Below, piece by piece: positions 152 through 7,957 of a stretch of 37,240 nt of DNA. Made by a program: the position numbers and the translations under genes. The stretch's first letter is position 1. Each line of letters begins with the position of its first letter. The DNA is from Candidatus Nomurabacteria bacterium (GTDB lineage: Bacteria > Patescibacteriota > Minisyncoccia > Phycocordibacterales > JAACPR01): NCBI GenBank assembly GCA_020632215.1, contig JACKFZ010000001.1, forward strand, positions 83,444-120,683. Direction: 5' to 3'. Under the pieces are notes generated by a model. The model was not told the origin of the DNA. It saw only the letters and a list, made by a program, of their open reading frames with translations, and made no database searches.

Positions 152-1835
152 AACTAGAATAAGGCTAATTTTATTTTTCTTAATTGCCTTGTCATTTATT
201 ATACTTTTACGACTTTACTCCTTGCAGATAATGCGTAGTGATGACTATGCACAAAAGGCTGATAGACAATATGTTAGACCGAATTCATCAATTTTTAACA
301 GAGGATCCATCTCTTTTTCTACTAAAGATGGATCAATTATTGATGCAGCTACTTTGCAAACTGGTTACAATGTCACCATCAATCCAAGTACCTTGAAAGA
401 GCCCGCGGATGTTTTTAACAACTTATCTTTTATTCTGGAATTGGATGAAAATGATTTCTTTAAAAGTGCTGATAAAACCGAAGATCCTTACGAAGAAATA
501 TTTAAAAGGGCAACACCGAGTGATGCAGAAAAAATAAAAGAAATGGATATAGATGGTGTTTCTCTTTATAAAGATAGGTGGCGATTTTATCCAGGAAAAT
601 CTCTTGGCTCGCATGTTTTAGGTTTTATGTCTTACAAAGGTGATGAACTTCGAGGGCAATATGGTTTGGAGAGACAATACAATGAAGTACTAGATAAAAG
701 TCATAATAGCTTATATGCTAATTTTTTTATAGAAATTTTTTCTGGAGTAGGAAATAGCTTGAAAGGAAAAGATTCTAGCGGTTCAATTATCACAACTATC
801 GAACCAACAGTTCAAACATTTGTGGAGAAAGAGATAGATAATGTGAGATCAAATTGGTCTGCCAAGAAAACGGGAGTAATTGTCATGAATCCAAAAAATG
901 GAGAAATTTATTCCATGGCTTTAAATCCAACTTTTGATCTAAATACTTTCAATGAAGTAGATGATATTGCTATATACAAAAATGATTTGGTGGAAAGTGT
1001 GTATGAAATGGGGTCAATCGTAAAACCACTAACAATGGCTATTGGTTTAGATACCAATTCTGTTATTGCTGGAACGACATATGAAGATAGGGGACAACTG
1101 ACTTTGAATAATCGAACTTTTTATAATTATGATGGAAAAGCTCGTGGCGTTGTGAGTATGCAAGATGTTTTGAATAATTCACTCAACACCGGCGTTGCTT
1201 TTGTTGTTAGTCGTGTTGGTAATAATGTTTTTTCTGATTACATGAAGAAGCTAATAGGAAATACTACCGATATAGATTTACCAAACGAAGCTTCTCCGTT
1301 GGTAAGTAATCTTGATAGTCCTCGTGATATTGAACATGCAACAGCATCTTTTGGCCAAGGTATTGCCATGTCACCGATTTCTATTACAAGAGCCTTGGCT
1401 TCTTTGGGTAATGGGGGATTATTAATTCATCCTCATGTAGTGAAGTCTATTAAATATGATTTGGGCTACACAAAAGAGGTGGATGAAAGAGAACCTATAA
1501 GAATTTTCTCAGAAGAAACATCAGAAGAAATATCGCGTATGCTTGTCACTGTAGTTGACGATGCTTTGCTAGGAGGAACTGTGGCTTTGCCAAATTACAC
1601 AATTGCTGCTAAAACAGGTACAGCTCAGATAGCTAATGGAAGAGGTGGCTACTATGATGATAGGTATTTACACTCTTTTTTTGGTTATTTCCCGGCTTAT
1701 GATCCAGAGTTTATAGTCTTTTTGTATGTAATTGAACTGTATGGTGTTCAATATGCTTCACAGACTTTGACTGAACCATTTATGAATATTGCAAAGTTTC
1801 TAATCAATTATTATGAAGTGCCACCTGATCGATAA
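132..1835 (+). CDS. ftsI: Class B penicillin-binding protein (peptidoglycan D,D-transpeptidase, FtsI/PBP2 family)
   Basis: N-terminal TM helix; SxxK (GSIVK), SxN (SLN) and KTG motifs; SFGQGI motif; adjacent to murF. Confidence 0.9.
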   Translation: MKHHLSKTRIRLILFFLIALSFIILLRLYSLQIMRSDDYAQKADRQYVRPNSSIFNRGSISFSTKDGSIIDAATLQTGYNVTINPSTLKEPADVFNNLSFILELDENDFFKSADKTEDPYEEIFKRATPSDAEKIKEMDIDGVSLYKDRWRFYPGKSLGSHVLGFMSYKGDELRGQYGLERQYNEVLDKSHNSLYANFFIEIFSGVGNSLKGKDSSGSIITTIEPTVQTFVEKEIDNVRSNWSAKKTGVIVMNPKNGEIYSMALNPTFDLNTFNEVDDIAIYKNDLVESVYEMGSIVKPLTMAIGLDTNSVIAGTTYEDRGQLTLNNRTFYNYDGKARGVVSMQDVLNNSLNTGVAFVVSRVGNNVFSDYMKKLIGNTTDIDLPNEASPLVSNLDSPRDIEHATASFGQGIAMSPISITRALASLGNGGLLIHPHVVKSIKYDLGYTKEVDEREPIRIFSEETSEEISRMLVTVVDDALLGGTVALPNYTIAAKTGTAQIANGRGGYYDDRYLHSFFGYFPAYDPEFIVFLYVIELYGVQYASQTLTEPFMNIAKFLINYYEVPPDR

Positions 1836-1875: not shown

Positions 1876-3186
1876 ATGAAAGAATTTCTTAAAAAAATAA
1901 TAATCAAAATAATTACTTGGGAATCTAGATTGGTGCTAGCTCGTTTTAGACCAAAAATTATTGCTGTTGTTGGAAGCGTAGGGAAAACTTCTACCAAGGA
2001 TGCTGTTTATTCTGGTTTAAAAAATATTTTATATATTAGAAAAAATCAAAAAAGTTTTAATAGTGAAATAGGTGTACCTCTTACTATTCTTGGTTTAGCT
2101 AATGCATGGGGGAATTATGGATTGTGGTTTTGGAATGTTATTAGGGGATTTCTAACTATATTTTCTTTTAATTATCCAAAATGGCTCATTCTTGAGCTTG
2201 GAATAGATAGACCCGGTGATATGAAAAAATATGCGTCTTGGATAAAGCCAGATGTTGTTATCCTTACTAGTTTTCCTGATGTGCCAGTGCACGTAGAATA
2301 TTTCGAATCTCCTGAAGATGTTATTGCAGAGAAAAAAGAAATTTTAAAATCTTTGAAGTATGACGGTGCTTTGGTACTGAATGCAGACGACCCAAAAGTC
2401 TTTGCGGTAGCAGAAGAGATGAAAAGTAAAATAAAAAAGGTTGTCACATTTGGACTTTCAACAAAAGCAGACGTTTCTATTTCAAATATGGATGTTATCT
2501 ATGAAAATTTTGATAATCATCAAGTGCCAACCGGCGTTTCTTTCAAAGGAAATTATAATGGTAACTCAGTTCCTATTGCTCTACACGGTGCGTTAGGAGT
2601 ACAGCATATTTATCCGATGGCTGCTGCTATGGCTACTGCTCTAGTATTAGATCTTCCTATACTATCTGTTGTTGATGCTCTGCATTATCATCAGGTGCCA
2701 AAAGGTCGAATGAATATTATAGAAGCTATAAATAATTCTGTTTTGATAGATGACTCATATAATGCTTCTCCAGAGTCTATGTCTAAGGCAATTGAAGTAT
2801 TGGGCCAATTAGAGACTAATAGTTCAAAAATAGCCATTTTGGGCGATATGCTTGAAATTGGAAAGTACACCGTTAGGGAGCATAGACGGATAGGGGAAAT
2901 GGTTAAAAATCAGGGTATAAATTTTCTATTCGCTATTGGACTTCGTTCAAAGGATATGGCTTTGGCAGCAGTAGAATCTGGTATGTCCGAGGACCATGTT
3001 TTTCATTTTGATTCATCAGAAGAAGCCATTGAGACAGTTTTGAAATATATAAAGCCTTATTCTCTAATTTTAATAAAAGGTTCTCAAGGAGCTAGGATGG
3101 AGAAAATATCTGGAGCTATTATCAAAGATCAAGACAACAAAGATGATCTGCTTGTTAGACAGGAAGGGGAGTGGGAAAGGAGATAA
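1876..3186 (+). CDS. murF: UDP-N-acetylmuramoyl-tripeptide--D-Ala-D-Ala ligase
   Basis: GSVGKTSTK P-loop, NSEIGVPLT, DDSYNASP, LGDMLEIG and IKGSQG motifs of MurF. Confidence 0.93.
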   Translation: MKEFLKKIIIKIITWESRLVLARFRPKIIAVVGSVGKTSTKDAVYSGLKNILYIRKNQKSFNSEIGVPLTILGLANAWGNYGLWFWNVIRGFLTIFSFNYPKWLILELGIDRPGDMKKYASWIKPDVVILTSFPDVPVHVEYFESPEDVIAEKKEILKSLKYDGALVLNADDPKVFAVAEEMKSKIKKVVTFGLSTKADVSISNMDVIYENFDNHQVPTGVSFKGNYNGNSVPIALHGALGVQHIYPMAAAMATALVLDLPILSVVDALHYHQVPKGRMNIIEAINNSVLIDDSYNASPESMSKAIEVLGQLETNSSKIAILGDMLEIGKYTVREHRRIGEMVKNQGINFLFAIGLRSKDMALAAVESGMSEDHVFHFDSSEEAIETVLKYIKPYSLILIKGSQGARMEKISGAIIKDQDNKDDLLVRQEGEWERR

Positions 3187-3190
3187 GAAT

Positions 3191-3354
3191 CAAAAATTCG
3201 AAGTACGAAATACGAAATCCGAAGCAAATATTAAATTTTAATAAATAAATTATAAACAAATAGTGAAATTTATACTTGTCTAATATTAAAACCAGGTACT
3301 ATATTTATAGCTTAATATTTAGAATTTGTTTCGGATTTCGATATTCGGATTTAC
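3191..3354 (+). mobile_element. ORF-less copy of the heptamer-inverted-repeat element that carries the four-helix-bundle gene at 10.6-11.1 kb
   Basis: Left arm cgaagta cgaaata cgaaatc cgaagca; right arm tgtttcg gatttcg atattcg gatttac. Positions 3240-3274 are identical (35 nt) to 10605-10639. Mobility is inferred. Confidence 0.75.
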
Positions 3355-3382
3355 CTGACTGCTAGCAGGACGCTTTGTCTCA

Positions 3383-3410
3383 TTTACATTTTATTTCAAA
3401 GTGCTATCAT
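3383..3410 (+). promoter_or_regulatory. Sigma70-type promoter for the leader-ridA-ilvA transcript
   Basis: TTTACA (3383-3388), 16-nt spacer, TGc-TATCAT extended -10 (3402-3410). Confidence 0.6.
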
Positions 3411-3418
3411 CTAAAGAC

Positions 3419-3493
3419 ATGACAAATATAGCTATCTACAACATTATAATTATTATGAGCTCAGGGCGAGGCAGAGGTCTGATTTGTGTCTAG
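3419..3493 (+). CDS. Ile-rich attenuator leader peptide (24 aa, ilvL-like)
   Basis: MTNIAIYNIIIIMSSGRGRGLICV*: six Ile codons in the first 12 (four consecutive), upstream of a terminator and of ilvA. Confidence 0.75.
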   Translation: MTNIAIYNIIIIMSSGRGRGLICV

Positions 3494-3514
3494 TTGTAGA
3501 AAATAGATAGAAAT

Positions 3515-3539
3515 AAGCCCTCTACCACGAGGGTTTTTT
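3515..3539 (+). terminator. Attenuator (intrinsic) terminator
   Basis: aagccctc-taccac-gagggttt stem-loop ending in a T6 tract, 33 nt upstream of the ridA ATG. Confidence 0.8.
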
Positions 3540-3572
3540 AAATTAATAATTAATAGTTGATAATCAATAATT

Positions 3573-3956
3573 ATGAAAAAAGAGATAAAAACAGAAAAAG
3601 CACCAGCACCAGTAGGACCTTATTCACAGGCTATTGAGATTAACGGAATGGTTTTTTGCTCTGGACAAATTGCATTAGATCCTGTTAGTGGAAATATAAG
3701 AGGTGACAATGCAGTATCTCAATTCGAAGTGGTAATTCAAAATTTAATAAATGTTTTAGAGTCAACAGGAGCAACATTAAATGATGTGGTGAGAGTAGAG
3801 ATTTATTTAAAAGACCTTTCAGATTTTTCGGAAATTAATAATTCATATGAAAAGTTTTTTGTAGATAGACCTTTTCCATCTAGAGTGACGGTCGAAGTCA
3901 ATAGATTACCAAAAGATGCATTAGTAGAAGTATCATGTATAGCTGTTAAAAAATAA
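3573..3956 (+). CDS. ridA: Rid family enamine/imine deaminase (RidA)
   Basis: APAPVGPYSQA, FCSGQIALDP, FPSRVTVEV (catalytic Arg) and LVEVSCIA motifs. Confidence 0.92.
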   Translation: MKKEIKTEKAPAPVGPYSQAIEINGMVFCSGQIALDPVSGNIRGDNAVSQFEVVIQNLINVLESTGATLNDVVRVEIYLKDLSDFSEINNSYEKFFVDRPFPSRVTVEVNRLPKDALVEVSCIAVKK

Positions 3957-3960
3957 AAAT

Positions 3961-5211
3961 ATGCAAAGATTAAAACTGATAAAGGAAGTAGAGAAAGCCA
4001 ATAACAATCTTGACGGAGTCATTACAAGAACACCATTAATTTTAAATAAAAGACTATCAAAAAAATATGGGGCAAATATTTTTCTAAAAAGAGAAGATCT
4101 ACAAGTTGTTAGATCGTATAAACTTCGTGGTGCCTATAACAAAATTTCAAATCTTTCTAAAGAAGAGAAAAAGAGGGGAGTGGTATGTGCTAGTGCTGGT
4201 AATCATGCGCAAGGTGTTGCTTTTGCCTGTTTTGATCTCAAGGTAAAAGGGCATATCTTTATGCCTCTCAATACTCCCAAACAGAAAGTAGATAGAGTGC
4301 GAGAGTTTGGTGATGGATGGACTGAAATTGTCCTAGTTGGTGATACCTATGATGATGCTCATAAAGAAGCTATGGATTTTTGCAAAAAGAAAAAATCTAT
4401 TTTTGTTCATCCTTTCGATGATCTGGAAGTAATAGCAGGACAGGGAACGATCGGAGTAGAAATCATGGAAAAAGCTAACAATGATGTAGATGTTGTGGTG
4501 GTGCCTATCGGTGGAGGTGGGCTGGTTGCGGGACTAGGTTCGTATGTAAAGAGTAAAAACAAAAAGACTAAAATCTTTGGTGTCGAACCTCTAGGGGCAC
4601 CATCTATGACAGCTTCTTTGAAAAAAGGAAAAGTGGTGAAGCTTGATCATATAGAAAAATTTGTTGATGGAGCTGCTGTCAAAGAAGTCGGTCAAGAGAC
4701 TTTTGCTATTGCTAAAAAACTAATAGATGCAATGCACACAGTTCCTGAAGGTAAGGTTTGCACAGAGATGATCTCACTTTATCAACATGATGGCATAGTG
4801 GCTGAACCTGCAGGAACTTTGTCAGTGGCAGTTTTAGATCAAATAAAAAAAGATATAAAAGGGAAAAACATAGTCTGTATCATCAGTGGTGGTAATAACG
4901 ACCTTAGTAGATTCCCAGAAATTGTTGATAAGAGTTTGATTTACGAAGGATTGAAACACTATTTCATTGTAGACTTTCCACAAAGACCTGGAGCTTTGAA
5001 ATTATTTTTGGAAAAAGCTTTAGGTAAGAATGATGATATTACTTTGTTTGAGTATATAAAGAAGAATGCTAGAGAGAGAGGACCAGCTCTTGTCGGTATT
5101 GAGTTGTCTAAAAAAGAGGATTTAGAGAAGTTGATGAAGAGAATGACTAGACTTGGTTTCCATTTTGAGAAACTAGAAAGTGATAGTCCAATGTTTAGAT
5201 TTTTGGTGTAG
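3961..5211 (+). CDS. ilvA: Threonine ammonia-lyase, short form with one C-terminal ACT-like domain
   Basis: KREDLQVVRSYKLRGA (PLP lysine), ASAGNHAQG, PIGGGGL, EPAG, SGGNND and FPQRPGAL motifs. Confidence 0.93.
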   Translation: MQRLKLIKEVEKANNNLDGVITRTPLILNKRLSKKYGANIFLKREDLQVVRSYKLRGAYNKISNLSKEEKKRGVVCASAGNHAQGVAFACFDLKVKGHIFMPLNTPKQKVDRVREFGDGWTEIVLVGDTYDDAHKEAMDFCKKKKSIFVHPFDDLEVIAGQGTIGVEIMEKANNDVDVVVVPIGGGGLVAGLGSYVKSKNKKTKIFGVEPLGAPSMTASLKKGKVVKLDHIEKFVDGAAVKEVGQETFAIAKKLIDAMHTVPEGKVCTEMISLYQHDGIVAEPAGTLSVAVLDQIKKDIKGKNIVCIISGGNNDLSRFPEIVDKSLIYEGLKHYFIVDFPQRPGALKLFLEKALGKNDDITLFEYIKKNARERGPALVGIELSKKEDLEKLMKRMTRLGFHFEKLESDSPMFRFLV

Positions 5212-5222
5212 AGTGGTGGTGT

Positions 5223-5534
5223 TTAAGTTAACGCAATGTCTTTCAGGTATTTAGATACAGAGTCGTATCCTTTCTTTATTGCTTTTTGCTCTATCTTTTT
5301 CTTATCTTCTGCTGAAACTCTGAATCTAATAACTTCTCCTTTTTTGGCATTATATTTTTGTTCTGCAATAATTAGATTTGGTAAATCTAAAATCAACTCA
5401 GGAATATCTTCAGCTAGAAAATTTTGATCAATTTTTGCATCTTTAGAGGTAAAGTGAATAGTCCCATCTTTATTTTTTTCTAAAGCATAAGAATAAATTT
5501 TGTTTTTTATTGTAATATTTGCTTTTGTTTTCAT
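5223..5534 (-). CDS. hicB: HicB-like antitoxin with C-terminal ribbon-helix-helix
   Basis: Overlaps the hicA stop; C-terminal VIRFRVSAEDKKKIEQKA...SVSKYLKDIAL is RHH-like; the N-terminus is a degenerate HicB-type fold. Confidence 0.6.
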   Translation of the reverse strand: MKTKANITIKNKIYSYALEKNKDGTIHFTSKDAKIDQNFLAEDIPELILDLPNLIIAEQKYNAKKGEVIRFRVSAEDKKKIEQKAIKKGYDSVSKYLKDIALT

Positions 5535-5773
5535 AATAAATATTTGATAATTTTATATATTTGTCTTTTATAAAATGGCTTGCATTCGTTACTATGGATG
5601 GGAACTATAACATCGTTAGGGAATTTCTGATTTTTATATTTCACATGACTACCTTTTGTCTGGATTTTTTCAAAGCCAAGTGATACTAGTATTTTTTCTA
5701 TATCTCTAAACTTTAACTTTTCTGGATCTTCTTTGAATTTGAATTTAGCAATCAGCTTATCCCTAATTGTCAT
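5531..5773 (-). CDS. hicA: HicA family mRNA interferase toxin
   Basis: LKFRDIEKILVSLGF...KGSHVKY...VIVPIH pattern of HicA. Confidence 0.85.
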   Translation of the reverse strand: MTIRDKLIAKFKFKEDPEKLKFRDIEKILVSLGFEKIQTKGSHVKYKNQKFPNDVIVPIHSNECKPFYKRQIYKIIKYLL

Positions 5774-6845: not shown

Positions 6846-7562
6846 CTAACCATGAGCCATATTAGTAAATTTCTCTATCTCTCCGTAGTTTTTTGAACCA
6901 TCAAGGTTTTGGACTCCTGTCTCGACATCAACACCATAAAATCCTCCAACCTCCATTGCAGCTTCTAAATTTATAGTTTTCAATCCTCCTGCCAGCCATA
7001 CAGGTAGATTACTTTCTTCTAATATTTTTTTACTAATAGACCAATCATGAGTTTGCCCTGTCCCTCCTGTCATATCTCCAACTTTTGAATCTAGAAGAAT
7101 TGCACTCAGAACGCCTGTCTCTTCATATCTTTTTGCCTCTTGTATAGCATCATGACCCGTAACATGGATAACTTTTACAATCTCAAGGTCTGGAAGTGCT
7201 TCTTTGATTTTCAATACTTCTTCAGGTGAAATATCACCTGTTAACTGAATGTGCGATGGCTGTACTCTGTTTGCAAAGTTAATATTAGTTTCTGCATCCT
7301 CTGCATTAGTAAGCATAAAAGTCTTTATATCACCATGTGACTTTTTTAATGTCTCAACTATTTCTACTGCTTGTTCCTCAGGAATATTATTTTTTGCTAG
7401 CTCTTTATCAAAGCCGACTAATACACCTATAGCATCTGGATGCAGATTACATATTTTATTTGCTTCCTCTACTGTTCTTACACCACAAATCTTAACTTTT
7501 AATTTAGGAGTCGATTCTATACTCTCAGTCACTTCCGTCTTTGGGTTACTTTGTTCTGGCAT
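6846..7562 (-). CDS. trpF: Phosphoribosylanthranilate isomerase (PRAI)
   Basis: KVKICG, HIQLTG, ILLDS...GGTGQTHDW, VWLAGGL and GVDVETGV motifs. Confidence 0.88.
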   Translation of the reverse strand: MPEQSNPKTEVTESIESTPKLKVKICGVRTVEEANKICNLHPDAIGVLVGFDKELAKNNIPEEQAVEIVETLKKSHGDIKTFMLTNAEDAETNINFANRVQPSHIQLTGDISPEEVLKIKEALPDLEIVKVIHVTGHDAIQEAKRYEETGVLSAILLDSKVGDMTGGTGQTHDWSISKKILEESNLPVWLAGGLKTINLEAAMEVGGFYGVDVETGVQNLDGSKNYGEIEKFTNMAHG

Positions 7563-7648
7563 ACAAAAATCTTACCACAATACAAAAAAGGTTCCAACGT
7601 CCCTTTGGGGTAGCTGAAAATACGTTGAAAAATAAGGCTCAAAAATTT

Positions 7649-7666
7649 GTGACCCTACCGGGAATC
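7649..7666 (-). repeat. tRNA-Glu 3'-end duplication (att-like)
   Basis: gtgaccctaccgggaatc, identical to 7951-7968. Confidence 0.9.
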
Positions 7667-7694: not shown

Positions 7695-7957
7695 GGGCAG
7701 GCTTAATGAAACTCGGCGAGATCTAAGCGATATAAAATTACATATCGCTTCGCTATATGTATTTTTATCGTGTGACCCTACCGGGAATCGGTCACAAGTC
7801 ACTAAGCTTTTTACTTCGCTCCACTCGTAAAAATCTAAGTGCTCGCGACCCCGCCTCGAAAGCTTCGCTTTCTCCGGCCTTCGATTATCTCCTCAGGAGA
7901 TTCACTGAGAACAAAAATAGCCCCGGATAAACCGGGACTATTTTGGTCCTGTGACCC
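7695..7957. repeat. Copy 2 of the tRNA-downstream direct repeat, including the att-like copy at 7772-7790
   Basis: See 6476-6745. Positions 7772-7790 (gtgaccctaccgggaatcg) are identical to 7951-7969. Confidence 0.9.
7914..7944 (-). terminator. Intrinsic terminator downstream of tRNA-Glu
   Basis: Minus strand aaaatagtcccgg-tttat-ccggggctatttt (13-bp stem with one G:U) ending in Ts; a second copy lies in repeat 1. Confidence 0.7.

Follow-up and report, generated by a model that had tools for sequence, protein, structure and literature searches.

The gap upstream of ridA-ilvA in this CPR (Patescibacteria) genome probably encodes a ribosome-mediated, isoleucine-responsive leader-peptide transcription attenuator controlling both genes. 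The original prediction of an Ile-sensing attenuator is supported in silico by conservation, codon-level evidence, covariation, and geometry, from which we infer coupling to translation, termination, and the response to isoleucine. If the attenuator works, it would represent a conserved and testable cis-regulatory RNA in a phylum about whose gene regulation next to nothing is known, and it would imply tight transcription-translation coupling on leaderless mRNAs. Positions given below are those of the window, meaning the whole 37,240-nt stretch of DNA that was analyzed.

Anatomy of the leader and its homologues

The leader features are housed in a single intergenic gap and are listed here together with the genes downstream.

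Between the Mur-ligase gene (1876-3186) and ridA (3573-3956): intergenic gap of 386 nt
3383..3410 (+): sigma-70-type promoter, with -35 TTTACA (3383-3388), a 16-nt spacer, and extended -10 TGcTATCAT (hexamer 3405-3410)
3419..3493 (+): leader peptide ORF of 24 codons, MTNIAIYNIIIIMSSGRGRGLICV followed by a stop codon, with 7 Ile
3427..3466 (+): segment 1, tentatively the 5' side of a "protector" that would pair with 3476-3515 in untranslated RNA and leave the terminator free
3443..3454 (+): putative regulatory Ile run (IIII), codons 9-12, ATT ATA ATT ATT
3467..3529 (+): predicted antiterminator hairpin, with 5' side 3467-3495 (AGAGG box 3473-3477 and the stop codon) and 3' side 3501-3529 (CCUCU 3519-3523)
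3515..3539 (+): intrinsic terminator, stem 3515-3522/3529-3536, loop UACCAC, T6 run ending at 3539
3559..3564 (+): possible internal -10 GATAAT, located 8 nt upstream of the start codon of ridA
3573..3956 (+): ridA, Rid-family enamine/imine deaminase (Pfam PF01042; TIGR00004), the first gene proposed to be regulated
3961..5211 (+): ilvA, short-form threonine ammonia-lyase with one C-terminal regulatory domain (Pfam PALP and Thr_dehydrat_C; NF006390 equivalog)

The order of promoter, almost leaderless 24-codon ORF, terminator, and ridA-ilvA that had been predicted was recovered feature by feature at the same positions. The promoter scores 10/12 plus the extended TG, and the leader ATG at 3419 lies 8 nt past the end of the -10 hexamer, which predicts a leaderless or nearly leaderless mRNA from a putative transcription start site close by. 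A GTG start at 3401 (30-aa ORF) was rejected, as it would fall within the -10 region. Additional Ile codons are present at 3428-3430 and 3434-3436, and Ile is the only amino acid enriched in the leader. The terminator hairpin (3515-3536; -11.1 kcal/mol, 8 pairs, 4 GC) ends 33 nt before ridA. Being almost leaderless does not make this leader special, because genes of this genome typically start without an untranslated leader or a Shine-Dalgarno sequence: a Shine-Dalgarno-like motif was found for only 1/40 window genes, while a -10 hexamer (at least 5/6 matches) ending 6-9 nt before the start codon was found for 13/39, against a 4 % background (p = 4e-9). These counts suggest that leaderless mRNAs are widespread in this CPR genome.

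Assignment of the genome to the CPR, already proposed from the window alone, is supported by protein relatives. Named relatives of the window CysS belong to Patescibacteria, Buchananbacteria, Paceibacterota, and Parcubacteria, those of the RecJ adjoining the leader of one homologous locus (L130) to Paceibacterota, Taylorbacteria, and Minisyncoccia, and the window IlvA has hundreds of homologues at 58-67 % identity, the named ones being from Kaiserbacteria, Parcubacteria, Pacebacteria, and Paceibacterota.

Conservation upstream of homologous genes had been suggested as a check on the prediction, which would have been refuted if homologous loci lacked an Ile-rich upstream ORF; DNA was fetched around ten distinct IlvA-clade homologues, and the prediction withstood this check. 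An Ile-rich upstream ORF with a terminator precedes (ridA-)ilvA in 7/10 distinct loci of the clade with DNA (6/9 besides the window), i.e., in the window and in L121, L128, L129, L130, L131, and L132. IlvA proteins of these six relatives are 62-65 % identical to that of the window, and identity among the leader-bearing lineages is 62-74 % except for the close pair L128/L130 (91 %). The leader peptides of the relatives, each ending at a stop codon, are as follows.

L128: MQANRPQQSNIISMIIIPFSSGGLICI
L130: MQANRPQQSNIIAMIIIPFSSGGLICI
L129: MRARGFQQPNIISIIIIQSFDGGLICI (ilvA directly after, without ridA)
L131: MKAKSFHQSNIIAQIIIQPSDGGLICV
L132: MSRMSNFISIIAIINILQTGGDFAHI
L121: MQTQSFQSMIMIAIIEPSLIQR

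All seven leaders start with ATG and have 22-27 codons, an open frame, and an Ile run; in the Ile columns of the aligned leaders the residue is kept while its codons vary among ATA, ATT, and ATC across loci. A promoter with its -10 ending 6-9 nt before the leader ATG is present in 7/7 loci (with extended TG in 6), as is a U-tailed terminator (-8.5 to -19.8 kcal/mol) located 18-79 nt before ridA or ilvA. Upstream neighbors differ in every leader locus (recombinase, tRNA plus RecJ, hypothetical genes, histidine kinase). Because the upstream genes all differ and L129 has no ridA, the element travels with ilvA, tracking neither ridA nor the upstream gene. It is missing from 3/10 IlvA-clade loci, namely L122/123 (GIY-YIG gene upstream), L124 (trpF upstream), and L125-127, in all of which ridA abuts an upstream gene.

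A chance origin of the leader layout is excluded by three observations. IIII occurs only 6 times in the 74,476 six-frame codons of the window; a model-free scan for an Ile-rich short ORF plus terminator over the window and 132 fetched loci (~0.8 Mb, both strands) returned the 7 family members, one Flavobacteriales locus (L007), and 4 other matches that are presumably chance; and the layout recurs in 6 loci.

Several observations concern the DNA around the leaders. The leader-ridA-ilvA unit is located at recombination-prone spots: in L130 (1130-1410), a tRNA gene at ~1130-1215 is followed by a copy of its 3' end (cgaatctcgccctctcc) directly before the leader -35, and on the corresponding side of its close relative L128 lies a large serine recombinase gene (268-1611, minus strand). 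In L132, a second copy of the promoter and of the initial ~20 nt of the leader ORF (…ttctgctacaattttgtcacgATGAGCCGAATGAGTAATTT) lies ~570 nt upstream (~830-885 and 1400-1455), where it opens a distinct ORF of 17 codons that precedes a hypothetical gene of 109 aa. A palindromic repeat element has two copies in the window. In the full copy (10562-11080), inverted ends rich in CGAAAT(A/C)CGAA flank a gene (10679-11023) for a PF05635 "23S rRNA intervening-sequence protein", and the copy just upstream of the leader promoter (3195-3352) has both ends (inverted arms 3201-3250/3303-3352) without the gene. Three independent Logan contigs (L037-L039) begin at one base within the latter copy, window position 3245, and this repeat may be the reason for their shared start. 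One of them, L038, from another sequencing run, differs from the window across an otherwise identical 330-nt region solely in a small palindrome that immediately precedes the -35 (L038 117-127 versus window 3361-3371), where ctgctagcagga of the window becomes ctactggtaggg, and the difference includes a G-C to A-T compensatory change; this palindrome could be a small hairpin or a protein-binding site.

Antiterminator pairing and ribosome position

The proposed switch depends on a helix that would compete with the terminator. It had been noted that AGAGGTCT (3473-3480) can pair 7/8 with the terminator 5' arm AGCCCTCT (3516-3523), and this pairing proved to be part of a longer antiterminator (3467-3529) that is conserved and covaries. 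Since the antiterminator shares bases 3516-3523 with the terminator 5' arm, the two hairpins are mutually exclusive; calculated energies in the window are -21.1 kcal/mol for the antiterminator and -18.3 for the inner hairpin plus terminator. In an alignment (A5) of the six alignable leaders, a set of only six independent sequences whose relatedness inflates shuffle statistics, 91.9 % of the cells of the 25-pair antiterminator are paired and 8 pairs are changed on both sides, and 0/500 shuffles reach either value. Control structures slid by 1-3 columns gave 38-51 % paired cells and 0-2 double-changed pairs, and unguided RNAalifold returned the same helix with 26 pairs, 7 of them compensatory. 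In the outer helix, an (A/G)GAGG box at the 3' end of the ORF and its preceding bases pair with the terminator 5' arm and loop as follows.

Window: 5' AGAGG with 3' CCUCU
L129: 5' GGAGG with 3' CCUCC
L128: 5' CUAGUGGAGG with 3' CCUUCACUAG
L131: 5' GAUGGAGG with 3' CCUUCAUC
L132: 5' GGUGGAGA with 3' UCUUCAUC

The stop codon is situated within the 5' side of the antiterminator, in a [AG]UCUA[AG] stretch. A C-terminal peptide G-(G)-L-I-C-[IV] is shared by 5/7 loci and is lost in L132 (GGDFAHI) and L121; in L132 the peptide change is radical, yet the RNA pairs are restored through compensatory changes. Because the peptide C-terminus has been lost in these two loci while the RNA pairs were kept, the 3' part of the ORF is under RNA-level selection, and the shared GGLIC[IV] is a by-product of RNA constraint.

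Pairing upstream of the antiterminator is less regular. The minimum free energy (MFE) structure of the untranslated window leader combines a long "protector" hairpin (3427-3515) with the terminator (-31.7 kcal/mol, z = -2.8), in registers 3432-3438:3504-3510 and 3444-3452:3491-3499. Such a 1:2 protector is part of the MFE structure of four leaders (window, L128, L130, and L132), without a common register, and is absent from that of L121, L129, and L131. The predicted match between TCTACAAC (3435-3442) and GTTGTAGA (3493-3500) is indeed an exact reverse complement, but it is specific to the window, where it is one of several protector registers, and is not conserved.

Folding of the alternative conformers, which had also been proposed as a check, agreed with the attenuator reading in the window: with a ribosome footprint on Ile codons 10-12 the predicted MFE structure is the antiterminator, and with the footprint on the stop codon it is the terminator. 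As a kinetic proxy, transcripts truncated just before the terminator 3' arm were folded under a footprint constraint for each ribosome A-site position. For all positions as far as the Ile run, the modelled probability of 5'-arm sequestration lies at 0.70-0.86, and in 7/7 loci it declines 1-4 codons beyond that run; in the model, the codons of the Ile run are therefore the last at which stalling would still spare the antiterminator. Full-length equilibrium scans gave a different picture, with antiterminators dominating L131/L121 and terminators L128/L130 at any ribosome position; P(term) was at least 0.97 in L128/L130, with no Ile-specific terminator loss there. Because full-length equilibrium modelling does not discriminate, any switching would have to rest on folding kinetics, as it does in classical attenuators.

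A model can be proposed on this basis. Transcription would start at the leader ATG or no more than a few nucleotides away from it, and a ribosome would load on the leaderless 5' end and trail the polymerase. When charged tRNA-Ile is scarce, the ribosome would stall at 3443-3454 with its footprint ending just short of 3467, and the freed AGAGG segment (3467-3495) could capture the terminator 5' arm (3501-3529) by pairing as soon as it is transcribed, allowing read-through into ridA-ilvA. When Ile is plentiful, the ribosome would reach the stop codon (3491-3493) and, because that codon lies inside the 5' side of the antiterminator, would occlude it, so that the terminator hairpin (3515-3536) with its T6 tract would fold and stop the polymerase.

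Downstream genes and alternative explanations

IlvA is the Ile-specific entry enzyme that commits threonine to the Ile branch, and the Thr_dehydrat_C regulatory domain is typical of the biosynthetic form of threonine deaminase. The window IlvA scored 636 bits against NF006390 (cutoff 421) and 612 against TIGR02079 (cutoff 441; both NCBIfam), and by the NCBIfam equivalog it is the IlvA form with a regulatory domain, not TdcB. An Ile-only leader fits this role of IlvA. RidA scored 144 bits against TIGR00004 (cutoff 106). The view that such regulation is unexpected in an auxotrophic lineage was overstated with respect to the genes, as ridA-ilvA is a conserved pair in this IlvA clade and is widespread in Parcubacteria/Paceibacterota. 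Full-text searches found no report of a leader peptide or of ilvA regulation in CPR within searchable papers. The ridA-ilvA pair is absent from 116 Bacteroidota and other loci obtained from two collection scans.

An attenuator as described could instead sense general translational or amino-acid status, with an output in threonine catabolism (2-oxobutanoate and ammonia, for energy or nitrogen) rather than Ile synthesis. CPR genomes are generally described as being without amino-acid pathways, no other Ile-pathway (ilv) genes were seen in the 37-kb window or in 10 related fetched loci, and in its AT-rich proteome Ile ranks with the commonest residues. We nevertheless consider this unlikely, given that NCBIfam equates the regulatory-domain IlvA with IlvA and not TdcB, that the leader is enriched in Ile alone, and that a Flavobacteriales ilvBNC-ilvA operon has a similar pure-Ile leader.

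The attenuator reading also invites a broader proposal, which we make tentatively and with less than even confidence, that Paceibacteria-type CPR bacteria monitor tRNA-Ile charging through a leaderless ribosome-coupled attenuator and raise ridA-ilvA when Ile is short. If this is true, ridA-ilvA would feed a real Ile route, either through an own pathway encoded elsewhere or through one split with a host via 2-oxobutanoate, and tRNA-Ile monitoring would be the first evidence at the level of mechanism that CPR bacteria couple transcription to translation and control genes by attenuation. A working attenuator would in itself mean that supposed amino-acid auxotrophs keep an Ile-sensing switch on an Ile-branch enzyme, and it would open the role of CPR ridA-ilvA to direct testing, whether that role is in Ile synthesis, in catabolism, or in a metabolic hand-off with a host.

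Other genes near ilvA are of interest in their own right. Directly after ilvA, a HicA toxin gene (5531-5773, -) overlaps a gene for a 103-aa partner with a NikA-like/ribbon-helix-helix match (5223-5534, -), and the two (5223-5773, -) are probably a toxin-antitoxin pair. A trpF (PRAI) gene (6846-7562, -) lies 1.6 kb from ilvA, with no Trp-type or Trp-rich leader seen before it; in L124 (1-2999), a Kaiserbacteria contig, a trpB-like PALP gene and trpC on the opposite strand are directly followed by trpF-ridA-ilvA. Fragments of Trp synthesis and ridA-ilvA thus tend to be neighbors in these CPR genomes. The 3' end (...gattcccggtagggtcaca) of a tRNA-Glu(CUC) gene (7951-8023, -) is repeated twice just downstream, at ~7770-7789 and 7647-7666, in what look like leftover attachment-site duplications from integrations at the tRNA. 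GC content of the 6-8 kb stretch of the window is 41.5 % versus about 33 %.

Slightly less probable than a general-status signal is that the short ORF, equipped with a promoter and terminator for itself, encodes a free-standing functional micropeptide, for instance a small hydrophobic peptide or a membrane peptide, and that ridA-ilvA is transcribed from a separate promoter between the terminator and ridA. Conservation of the ORF and of its C-terminal ending in 5/7 loci would fit such a peptide, as would the commonness of leaderless genes in this genome and the -10-like hexamers before ridA in the window (GATAAT, 8 nt) and L132 (TATAAT, 9 nt). The other 5/7 loci, however, have no -10 hexamer with at least 5/6 matches before the downstream gene, so that this hexamer is not a conserved part of the element; where present, it could bypass the attenuator and give basal expression. 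Furthermore, the hydrophobic stretch spans just 3-5 residues, the C-terminal motif is lost in L132 and L121 with RNA pairing kept, covarying pairing of the ORF 3' end with the terminator 5' arm would be needless for a simple gene terminator, and the element always lies 18-79 nt before ridA or ilvA, whatever is upstream.

Least probable of the three is a ribosome-independent riboregulator with an incidental ORF, in which a ligand, tRNA, or protein stabilizes the antiterminator: although the 60-nt hairpin shows strong conservation, including internal positions that never vary, and is already the MFE structure without a ribosome in three loci, this would leave unexplained the ATG-initiated open frame in all loci, the synonymous variation in the Ile columns, and the unvarying position of the Ile run immediately before the helix, and the hairpin has neither a match to an Rfam riboswitch or T-box nor the multi-helix junction or conserved bulge typical of ligand pockets.

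Comparison with known systems

Database searches placed the leader outside described RNA families. Among 4227 Rfam families, the only gathering-score match in the window was one tRNA, and a permissive scan of 3100-3700 found no riboswitch or T-box family, the best leader match being Phe_leader (18.4 bits versus a gathering score of 55, E = 2); a T-box or other known riboswitch was rejected on these scores. A covariance model (R1) built from A5 recovered only its six training loci plus their reverse strands, missing the divergent L121 and adding no new members, and over 561 kb of ilvA loci from other phyla the A5 model found nothing else. A GTDB scan with IlvA, which relies on exact peptide words and therefore yielded no locus from the CPR, returned only loci at 51-58 % identity from Bacteroidota and Bacilli plus one labelled Gammaproteobacteria; these were used for negatives only. 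A metagenome scan with the IlvA alignment gave mostly distant IlvA, with the leader element in none among the matches listed, and a viral-contig scan for a conserved 21-mer gave 0 matches. Among RNA-seq runs, none contains the locus; DNA runs X1-X7 come from samples of the activated-sludge or wastewater type.

Leader-peptide attenuation is textbook biology, and the leaders of enterobacterial ilvGMEDA (ilvL), ilvBN (ivbL), trp, thr, his, phe, and leu are leader-peptide attenuators. In common with these, the CPR leader has a short ORF bearing putative regulatory codons in tandem, antiterminator and terminator hairpins that exclude each other, a terminator before biosynthetic genes, and a predicted read-out of ribosome position. 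It has no sequence or profile similarity to them and differs in that its regulatory codons specify nothing but Ile, in contrast to the mixture of Ile, Val, and Leu codons in ilv leaders of enterobacteria; its mRNA is predicted to be leaderless and without a Shine-Dalgarno sequence; its stop codon lies within the antiterminator 5' side; the putative regulated unit is ridA-ilvA alone; and the host is a CPR bacterium.

Outside Proteobacteria, candidate ilvB leaders with branched-chain codon runs and terminators before ilv genes have been described in Corynebacterium, Mycobacterium, and Streptomyces (PMC1262725, PMC10272879). Like the CPR leader, these were found by comparative genomics, but they mix Ile, Val, and Leu, precede ilvBNC, and are unrelated to it in sequence. 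One is a precedent against our reading, as mutation of the regulatory codons of the candidate ilvB leader of Streptomyces coelicolor was without effect (PMC1262725).

Similar in design is the Flavobacteriales MAG locus L007 (415-530), in which MKNLNKVNIIIISLQKQ, ending at a stop codon, and a terminator directly precede ilvB-ilvN-ilvC-ilvA. By sequence inspection, GUGAGAGAG can pair there with the terminator 5' arm and loop CUUUCUCAC. This leader shares with the CPR family a pure Ile run and a lineage without Shine-Dalgarno use, and its IlvA is 56-58 % identical to that of the window; it differs in having a full ilv operon, no ridA, and a different peptide and helices, and its match to the CPR covariance model is marginal (20.6 bits, E = 0.59). 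L007 is an analogous Ile leader of different sequence and fits the "strong clues" for leader-peptide attenuation reported for flavobacterial/Bacteroidota amino-acid operons (PMC9723704). Set beside these systems, we rate the CPR leader as a new sequence family employing a known mechanism, and not as a new mechanism.
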